Positions 902-1,666 of a stretch of DNA of 5,929 nucleotides are shown one piece after another (the first letter of the stretch is position 1; the number at the start of each line of letters is the position of its first letter). The position numbers and the translations under genes are program-made. Location: IMG/VR virus record IMGVR_UViG_2690316115_000016; one strand, 5' to 3'. Below the pieces are notes generated by a model. The model did not search any database and had not been told where the DNA came from. It saw only the letters and a list, made by a program, of their open reading frames with translations. Source of the DNA: a virus. Lineage: Duplodnaviria; Heunggongvirae; Uroviricota; Caudoviricetes.

Positions 902-916
902 AAATCTGCATATCAT
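889..916 (+). promoter_or_regulatory. Candidate late promoter (pR'-like) embedded in the 3' end of Q
   Basis: TTTACG (889-894), a 16-nt spacer, then TATCAT (911-916). Lambdoid late promoters sit at this position, at or just past the end of Q. This is a motif-level call only. Confidence 0.35.
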
Positions 917-945
917 GATAAGAGTGGTTACATTGCCACGCAGCC

Positions 946-972
946 GAACCCGCCGATGCGCGGGTTTTTTTG
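946..972 (+). terminator. Intrinsic terminator, tR'-like
   Basis: GC-rich hairpin CCCGC/GCGGG (949-964) followed by seven T residues (965-971). Confidence 0.55.
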
Positions 973-1151
973 TACCCAGAATCCTGTGAGCTATACGGAA
1001 AGTACACAGAAAGGAAGGTACGACCGCAATTAATAACAAAATCTTAAAAATCTCATATGGCACTATTAGTTTTCTAAATATTGTATATTTTAAGTATTGC
1101 AGGATAACCCTGTAACGAAGTTTGCGTAACAGCATTTTGCTCTACGAGTTT

Positions 1152-1182
1152 GCCAGCCTCCCCTGGTGGCTGGCTTTTTTTG
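1152..1182 (+). terminator. Second intrinsic terminator
   Basis: Perfect 7-bp stem GCCAGCC (1152-1158) / GGCTGGC (1168-1174) with a 9-nt loop, followed by seven T residues (1175-1181). Confidence 0.6.
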
Positions 1183-1443
1183 TATCCGTTCAACGGGAAT
1201 GTTACATACCTCACAATTAAGTCAGTTGAATGTTGTCTGCCCGGATGAGAATTTGTTAGAAAAAACTGCATGGTGAATCCCCCTGAGCGGAGGGGCGACT
1301 GGTGACGGTATAATCTCTGATTATCAAAACGAGAATGACGCGGGTTTAGTGGCACCGGGCTGAACTCACCGGGAGGCACCCGGCACCATGCAATGGCACA
1401 TAGCGCCACTCTCCAGCCCCTCTCCGGAGGGGCTTTCTTATGG

Positions 1444-1473
1444 ACAAAAAAGCCCGCGCTGGGAGACGCGGGC
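1444..1473 (-). terminator. Intrinsic terminator oriented for the minus strand
   Basis: Stem GCCCGCG (1452-1458) / CGCGGGC (1467-1473), preceded on the + strand by ACAAAAAA (1444-1451), so the U-tract follows the hairpin only on the minus strand. Confidence 0.4.
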
Positions 1474-1666
1474 GGCAAGGAATGAACAATGAAACGTGAA
1501 GTAATATTTCAGCTGGCGAATAATACCCCATAGTAATCACTCTGCGCAACTGCGCGACCTTTTTCGAATTGCGGGCTGTAGTCTCCCTTCTGCCATTGTC
1601 CTGTAACTTCCGGACTTCAGCCCGCTCCTTATTTTACTCACAATATTATCCCGGCCGGGAGGATTC

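Follow-up and report, generated by a model that had tools for sequence, protein, structure and literature searches.

A probable Stx-type late-operon leader with an empty cargo site in a lambdoid prophage fragment

The late-operon leader of Stx phages has been described for 933W, whose record (AF125520) carries annotations of a late promoter, a qut site and two terminators, and for the Sakai prophages Sp5 and Sp15. In Sakai, dRNA-seq and Term-seq placed the 3' end of tR' 258 nt from the pR' start (Sy, Lan & Tree 2020, PMC7547250). RNase E cleaves this transcript, StxS-L (258 nt), at the motif GU|AUU, at +173, and the cleavage yields a stable Hfq-binding RNA, StxS-S, that activates rpoS and represses stx1B (PMC7547250). 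The promoter is constitutive in lysogens and requires no phage regulator, and the Q clade of 144 aa co-occurs with StxS (PMC7547250). Expression of StxS1 has also been reported from the cryptic Sp15 of Sakai.

Further downstream, Tree et al. (2014, PMC4104026) described a "moron" insertion site and, between this site and a conserved ORF, convergent sRNAs in which EcOnc27/STnc100 faces AsxR, AgvB or EcOnc08/21/42. The STnc100 family counts 11 copies in EDL933, one of them confirmed by Northern blot; one copy of the family lies 75 nt downstream of stx2B, and the Sp5 copy has been equated with the Hfq-bound EcOnc27. The literature on STnc100 and PasD (Zhu, Shabalina & Storz 2026 preprint; Pearl Mizrahi et al. 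2021) includes the proposal of a common origin, PasD also being found beside Q and upstream of a sialate esterase. Published sizes vary from 172-173 nt (PasD1/2) and ~187 nt (EcOnc13) to ~235/247 nt (EcOnc27). On the opposite strand, the EPEC RIL-seq candidate E2348C_1409.E2348C_1408.IGR is a 182-nt minus-strand sRNA that has tir and the 5' UTRs of cfa and dppA among its partners, with GGCAAGG as target motif (PMC8550237 supplements); its authors link it to EHEC EcOnc08/21/42. The Sakai coordinates given in these papers belong to an older record version, offset by ~133-144 bp, and lengths and sequence were used instead for the comparisons below.

The window analyzed here is a 5,929-nt stretch of a Caudoviricetes record (IMGVR_UViG_2690316115_000016). 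It holds the late region of a lambdoid prophage, with the gene order ninH, Q, nanS-p, DUF1378, DUF826, holin, lysozyme, Rz, bracketed by IS600-family and IS3-family ends; the early region and the structural genes are not in the window. At 99.7-99.9% identity, the phage part (125-5829) matches a non-Stx prophage found in E. coli ML35, in the O104:H4 outbreak lineage and in others, and these matches end at the IS ends of the window. The Q CDS is annotated at 435 nt in ML35. In a 99.9%-identical E. coli locus, RefSeq annotates nanS-p as "SASA family carbohydrate esterase" and no CDS between Q and nanS-p. The initial annotation had singled out the interval 902-1666 as a non-coding gap, and this holds: Q stops at 901 and nanS-p starts at 1667, with the interval filling exactly the space between the two genes. 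Genomes already sequenced contain the interval at 100% identity; the identical sequence is found in the laboratory strain ML35, and the O104:H4 outbreak strains have it in their second prophage. We read it, with a probability of roughly 85%, as the late-operon leader of a 933W/Stx-type lambdoid prophage in which the cargo site is empty. The features on which this reading is built are collected in Table 1.

Table 1. Features of the Q-nanS-p interval and its surroundings, in window coordinates
Feature	Position	Strand	Description and basis
IS600-family end	1-124		
ninH	277-474		
Q antiterminator gene	467..901	+	ORF of 144 aa; Pfam PF06530 found on identical locus; "short Q" type
Late promoter pR'	889..916	+	-35 TTTACG (889-894), 16-nt spacer, -10 TATCAT (911-916); consensus scan
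StxS-L homologue (leader RNA, ~258 nt)	923..1181	+	Inferred start to tR' U-run
Putative qut (Q-utilisation) motif, ACATTGCC	930..937	+	Exact match to annotated feature of 933W
First terminator-like hairpin	946..974	+	8-bp stem, 6-nt loop, U7; hairpin at 946-967; ~+24 to +52 of the RNA from pR'
RNase E motif GU|AUU (GTATT)	1094..1098	+	+172 to +176 of the leader; sequence position
StxS-S homologue	1096..1181	+	rpoS-pairing stretch 1096-1124
tR' intrinsic terminator	1150..1181	+	Stem GCCAGCC/GGCTGGC and U7 (U-run 1175-1181)
Empty cargo ("moron") slot	1184..1197		14 bp of filler only; breakpoints from alignments
Upstream/promoter region of STnc100-type RNA, "empty-slot" allele	1198..1267	+	Candidate -35 TTGTCT (1233-1238) and -10 TAGAAA (1257-1262), read by eye
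STnc100-family sRNA (RF02076; EcOnc27-type)	1240..1445	+	Rfam covariance model
Minus-strand intrinsic terminator	1446..1473	-	GCCCGCG...CGCGGGC (1473-1452) and U6; back to back with the STnc100 terminator
Convergent minus-strand sRNA, putative EcOnc08/21/42 (EHEC) homologue	~1446..1627	-	Homology to EPEC RIL-seq candidate
Conserved palindrome CTGCGCAACTGCGCG	1542..1556		In 4/5 aligned alleles; one base differs in Sp15
Candidate promoter of minus-strand sRNA	1645..1673	-	-35 ATGCCA (1673-1668), -10 GATAAT (1650-1645); consensus scan only
nanS-p	1667..3577	+	ORF of 636 aa; DUF1737, SASA esterase and DUF6645 (Pfam); first late gene 3' of the leader
IS3-family end	5825-5929		

The first part of the interval compares closely with the late leaders of 933W, Sp5 and Sp15, with which it shares the 144-aa Q type; pR', qut and the first terminator are exact copies of those annotated in 933W. 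The promoter matches the 933W feature "pR'; putative late promoter" at every base, and transcription would start at ~923-925, ~7 nt past the -10 element. The first hairpin corresponds exactly to the "possible rho-independent terminator" of the same record (949-971 in the window), and the fold of 923-975 reaches -21.9 kcal/mol (z -3.4). The second annotated terminator of 933W falls at the equivalent place of tR', at ~1152-1180 in the window, and it is this second terminator, not the first hairpin, that corresponds to the tR' defined by Term-seq in Sakai. The initial annotation had divided the interval into a promoter-terminator unit, an AT-rich block with a second terminator and a GC-rich segment full of hairpins. 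These elements are all present, with 27-33% GC over 1000-1149 ahead of the second terminator and 55-62% GC over 1300-1500, but the first hairpin does not end the promoter-terminator unit. Since the experimentally defined pR'-tR' unit measures 258 nt, the first two blocks (~923-1181) form a single transcription unit. The early hairpin also counts against our reading to some extent, as a structure at this position should halt many transcripts ahead of the 258-nt point. In addition, it is a mosaic boundary: in O157:H7 F6294, which has a different Q, the homology to the window begins at 947.

The leader also has the marks of StxS, namely a 144-aa Q gene upstream, a pR'-tR' distance of ~258 nt, the RNase E motif at about +173 and a 3' fragment with an rpoS seed. 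Over 330-1183, the window is 95.8% identical to Sp5 and 94.0% to Sp15, and it does not differ from Sakai in the RNase E motif or in the rpoS-pairing stretch. The StxS-S body is the same as that of Sakai StxS2 (Sp5), except for three bases of the tR' loop (1164-1166; CCCCTGGTGG in the window versus CCCCCAGTGG in Sakai) and one extra T in the U-run. When the 598-nt rpoS leader was scanned with a 30-nt sliding window, the best partner of StxS was the stretch from -120 to -91, which we take to be the DsrA/RprA/ArcZ pairing site. The predicted duplex (-23.8 kcal/mol) is not exceptional, being reached by 26 of 100 shuffles. A whole-leader RNAduplex run, which the scan replaced, had returned a meaningless 80-nt duplex. 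Sub-threshold Rfam matches to RprA and DsrA over StxS would fit a shared seed. Transcription, RNase E processing, Hfq binding and rpoS activation have been demonstrated for the Sakai alleles (PMC7547250) and would be expected of the allele in the window. The two settings differ in what follows: unlike in 933W and Sakai, no stx or tRNA genes come after tR', and stx1B, a target of StxS in Sakai, is absent from the window.

The initial annotation had also pointed to the interval as a place for phage small RNAs and had proposed a covariance search, and three documented sRNA loci are indeed present, StxS and a convergent pair beyond the slot. The plus-strand member of this pair is the sole Rfam family above threshold in the interval: with 165.1 bits (E 2.8e-38), STnc100 exceeds its gathering score of 47, and the match covers model positions 1-206 of 206. 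Its terminator hairpin lies at 1415-1434, with a weak U-run to ~1441, and the RNA is found at the same position in five relatives (Sp5, Sp15, phi296, HCP4S3_I4 and U15A). Given the varied published sizes of the family, its 5' end is uncertain. The position by Q and upstream of the esterase is shared with PasD, and PasD2 begins with GCAUGGUGAAUCC / GCATGGTG, the motif found at window position 1268. However, this RNA does not have the PasD1/2 seed (UGUGAG and then UUCUGGCUGCGCAU), and the PasD2 body gave no match by BLAST (word size 9), with only its first ~25 nt resembling the window from 1268 onward. As it is without the PasD seed, the plus-strand RNA belongs to the STnc100 branch.

On the opposite strand, window positions 1360-1768 are 92.7% identical to the EPEC prophage PP6 locus, and the coordinates of the 182-nt EPEC RNA map to 1446-1627, minus strand. 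Besides this homology, the assignment to EcOnc08/21/42 agrees with the strand, antisense to the late operon, and with the terminator beside STnc100 (fold of -16.9 kcal/mol, z -3.4). A seed-like CCUUGCC at 1480-1474 is the perfect complement of the GGCAAGG target motif, and the EcOnc08/21/42 Northern probe, in the late-strand sense, matches ~1520-1554. The -35 of the candidate promoter overlaps the nanS-p start codon; the start that it predicts (~1638) and the EPEC start estimated by RNA-seq, which maps to 1627, are 11 nt apart. With a promoter at this place, the minus-strand RNA would be antisense to the nanS-p leader. Two other assignments of this unit were rejected. The models of AsxR and AgvB (RF02703 and RF02702) have no match at E<=1 in the whole window or at E<=10 in 880-1700, with the same tool finding AsxR in Sp5; what is shared with AsxR/AgvB is position, strand and terminator placement only. 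A short AsxR-like RNA starting at ~1525 from a TTGCGC/TATTAT promoter does not agree with the EcOnc08/21/42 probe and the EPEC coordinates, which extend the RNA to ~1627. The conserved palindrome within the unit, judged from the Sp5 sequence, seems to supply the -35 of AsxR in Sp5. The pair as a whole has the position, orientation and back-to-back terminators of those described by Tree et al. (2014), and likewise STnc100 as its plus-strand member. It differs in having no moron CDS upstream and in its minus-strand partner, which is a long allele of the EcOnc08/21/42 type in place of a 51-60-nt anti-sRNA with the conserved ~42-nt 3' region.

The sequence comparisons establish the identity and position of each element, the family assignment by covariance model, the breakpoints and the spread of the empty junction among genomes. 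Based on published experiments with near-identical alleles, the following picture can be proposed. In a lysogen, pR' would constitutively start an RNA at ~923 that stops at the leader terminators, the stable product being the ~258-nt RNA that ends at tR'. Cleavage by RNase E at GU|AUU would free the Hfq-binding StxS, which would pair with the rpoS leader and so lead to more RpoS. Once made, Q would modify RNA polymerase at pR'/qut, and the modified polymerase would pass both leader terminators and the STnc100 terminator and continue into nanS-p and the lysis genes. The slot that follows tR', filled by tRNA genes and/or stxAB in other phages, has a content of 14 bp here. Past the slot, the STnc100-type and EcOnc08/21/42-type RNAs would be transcribed toward each other, to terminators lying back to back, the latter RNA beginning near the nanS-p start codon. 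As IS elements truncate the prophage, it may be that Q is never made in this setting; no phage factor is required by pR' or by the promoters of the sRNAs.

The strongest alternative is that the sequences are intact and the sRNA genes nevertheless silent, or of no consequence for the host, in what is after all an IS-bounded fragment lacking early and structural genes within the window. Loci of this kind do decay: ISEc13 interrupts the copy in EPEC PP6, and some IMG/VR relatives have lost 38 bp from within STnc100. Nonetheless, promoter, RNase E site, seed and the four terminators all remain intact here and are identical, or nearly so, to those of expressed alleles. Moreover, a promoter that is constitutive in lysogens needs no phage regulator (PMC7547250), and the cryptic state of Sp15 does not prevent StxS1 expression in Sakai, so that we regard an inert relic as unlikely.

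The comparison with Stx and stx-negative phages, suggested at the outset as a way of finding the breakpoints, places them exactly at the cargo site, the moron insertion site of Tree et al. (2014, PMC4104026). All cargo-bearing relatives lose homology directly after tR'; it is kept up to window position 1183 and resumes at 1198-1211, so that three types of cargo share one left junction and have right junctions no more than 13 bp apart. The slot holds 469 bp in the phi296, TL-2011a and PPwrbA phages (a DNA-methylase remnant, its own promoter, three tRNAs and a terminator), 1,490 bp with stx1AB in Sp15, and 1,786 bp with a tRNA cassette and stx2AB in Sp5. Both flanks show 94-98% identity to phages of the Stx1, Stx2 and tRNA-only types, in agreement with the proposal of a Stx late region relative that has no toxin. 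Outside the slot, the closest relatives are the stx-negative, tRNA-bearing Traversvirus phages of the phi296 group (97.5-98.2% identity over the two sides, 98.2% left and 97.5% right), which share the gene order Q, leader, STnc100, nanS-p and lysis genes; unlike the window, they carry the 469-bp methylase-remnant/tRNA cassette and another allele of 1198-1267.

The absence of tRNA and stx remnants, noted earlier from the letters of the interval, is borne out by every search applied. ARAGORN found no tRNA genes (0) and Rfam no tRNA match; tblastn with Stx1A/B and Stx2A/B gave chance-level matches only (best E 0.39, none inside 902-1666), as did blastn with the cargo DNA of three relatives for tRNA, methylase and stx remnants. 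Neither stxA and stxB between tR' and the STnc100/nanS-p module, the arrangement of Stx-converting phages, nor the ileZ-argN-argO cassette that stands 3' of tR' in the Stx2 and tRNA-only types is found in the window.

An empty slot of this kind could be a scar, left when an Stx- or tRNA-bearing phage recently lost the cargo between tR' and the STnc100 module. Stx phages can lose stx, and it is the tRNA-bearing phi296 group that stands closest to the window. A simple deletion, however, would keep the cargo-type version of 1198-1267, and this segment reaches 97-99% identity with every empty-slot locus but only 66-69% with the cargo-bearing phages phi296, Sp5 and Sp15, whereas 1268-1666 is 98-100% identical to phi296. 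Because the identities of the two segments differ in this way, the slot and the upstream region of STnc100 behave as one haplotype. With a 201-bp query across the empty junction, 113 of 5,426 complete E. coli genomes showed it covered without a break (95-100% identity among the 60 matches listed); among the deposited phage genomes of the INPHARED set, none has it unbroken. The filler, GTATCCGTTCAAC(A/G)GGAATGTTA, is common to four other empty-slot loci, with flanks that diverge up to ~12%. Three upstream contexts occur among these loci: the Q type of the window (L007), a different Q with homology from 947 (L021), and type I restriction-modification genes (L022 and L023). The occurrence in 113 genomes, the three upstream contexts and the separate version of 1198-1267 therefore argue against a recent deletion scar, as does the lack of any tRNA, methylase or stx remnant. 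When the cargo ends were scanned for traces of insertion or excision in the form of microhomology or direct repeats, the matches were weak and unconvincing only. Taken together, we consider such a scar improbable, even more so than an inert relic. Of the two possibilities left by the initial annotation, toxin-less relative or deletion scar, it is the former that we retain.

The alignments are best read as pointing to a long-standing cargo-free haplotype rather than a fresh deletion. This haplotype has probably been exchanged by homologous recombination between two conserved stretches, the tR'/StxS block and the 5' stem of STnc100. The slot may have been empty ancestrally or may have been acquired empty by recombination, the mosaic pattern alone being compatible with either. 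As a tentative proposal, about which we have more doubt than confidence, the Stx moron site could have been cargo-free ancestrally, in the form of this haplotype (the slot and 1198-1267), with StxS/tR' and the 5' stem of STnc100 as recombination anchors between which tRNA and stx cassettes are swapped. If this were the case, stx-negative prophages like that of the window would be ready-made landing pads for toxin acquisition, and even an IS-truncated remnant would keep supplying its host with an RpoS-activating sRNA.

The locus is real but ordinary, and current understanding is unchanged by it. All of its elements have been described previously (933W annotation, Tree 2014, Sy 2020, Pearl Mizrahi 2021, Zhu 2026), the haplotype structure of the empty slot being the only mildly new point. 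Although first described around Shiga toxin genes, the set of StxS, STnc100/EcOnc27 and the EcOnc08/21/42-type RNA can exist independently of the toxin, with the same leader intact in a toxin-free and tRNA-free prophage fragment. Annotations of an "empty" spacer of this type should mark three sRNA genes in it, along with pR' and two terminators. For the evolution of Stx phages, the exact empty junction, which 11 IMG/VR contigs carry, is a useful reference for what counts as cargo.

That the interval instead encodes small proteins, such as a 134-aa minus-strand ORF (1074-1478) or a 34-aa ORF (1388-1492), is highly improbable, for in spite of ORFs of 30-134 aa on both strands, short minus-strand ORFs called by PHANOTATE at this place in phi296 and ribosome coverage reported on some STnc100 copies by one ribosome-profiling study, the 134-aa ORF starts with TTG, runs antisense through STnc100 and crosses the cargo slot, so that it is disrupted in every cargo-bearing relative, while RefSeq annotates no CDS in identical loci and the existing calls are flagged as frameshifted or partial pseudogenes. 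Structure is plentiful across the interval, with hairpins at folding z-scores of -3.2 to -3.7 and six terminator-like sites, against 1.2 +/- 1.2 in shuffles.

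The late region in the window is, judging from its sequence matches, a prophage remnant bounded by insertion sequences, since each side carries an IS end and every E. coli match to the phage part ends at 125 and 5829.

Insertion-sequence ends at the borders of the prophage fragment
Feature	Position in window	Border
IS600-family end	1-124	left
IS3-family (IS629-like) orfA start	5825-5929	right

The gene content ahead of the pR' leader varies among the related loci. In two E. coli genomes (L022 and L023), type I restriction-modification genes are found directly upstream of the leader, in the usual position of Q, with hsdS present in both and hsdM additionally in one of them; homology to the window begins there at about 874-881. 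In a prophage with an empty cargo slot and a different Q (L021), homology starts instead at the first hairpin of the leader (946-974). This hairpin is predicted as an intrinsic terminator, canonical in looks, about 24-52 nt past the start of pR', and it falls within the 258-nt StxS-L RNA; it may end transcription, make the polymerase pause or take part in Q loading.

For the shorter product, StxS-S, the exact 5' end is uncertain. The 258-nt RNA was reported to be cleaved at +173, the product nevertheless being given as 74 nt (Sy, Lan & Tree 2020, PMC7547250); by arithmetic on these figures, such a cleavage leaves 85-86 nt (1096-1181 in the window), while the RLM-RACE of the same study places the 5' end 8 nt further downstream, for a product of ~78 nt. 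At 1068-1184, over the StxS-S homologue, the Rfam search returned sub-threshold matches to the RprA model (27.9 bits versus a threshold of 70) and the DsrA model (16.6 bits versus 60). Both of these RNAs are activators of rpoS, and reportedly use the same rpoS seed.

On the cargo side, the locus of E. coli U15A (L006, 1348-4207) has, ahead of the esterase gene, a full-length DNA methyltransferase, two tRNAs (tRNA-Ile and tRNA-Arg), a DUF3927 gene, one copy of STnc100 and, on the minus strand, iraM. This arrangement probably shows the origin of the "methylase remnant" in the tRNA cassette of Stx phages and, through iraM, probably also that other cargo can occupy the far side of STnc100. The STnc100 copies themselves differ between loci. 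E. coli HCP4S3_I4 (L007) has an empty slot followed by a tandem STnc100 pair (3339-3552 and 3614-3812, with 176 and 146 bits), and in prophage PP6 of E2348/69 (L009, 18019-19800) the copy is divided by an ISEc13 insertion, the adjoining minus-strand sRNA candidate being still intact. Two IMG/VR contigs (L015 and L019) align to the window in two blocks, one up to 1355 and the other from 1394, and match it elsewhere at ~99.8-99.9%; this break in the alignment suggests that ~38 bp are missing within their STnc100.

Further hairpins are found downstream of nanS-p. Just past its stop codon, a terminator-like hairpin followed by U7 is present on the minus strand (3591-3603), the equivalent position being occupied in EPEC and EHEC prophages by PasA/PasC (EcOnc51/52); a BLAST comparison gave no similarity to PasA. 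A long hairpin of 15 pairs (5091-5123) follows the lysozyme gene and precedes a small ORF (5182-5334) and Rz.
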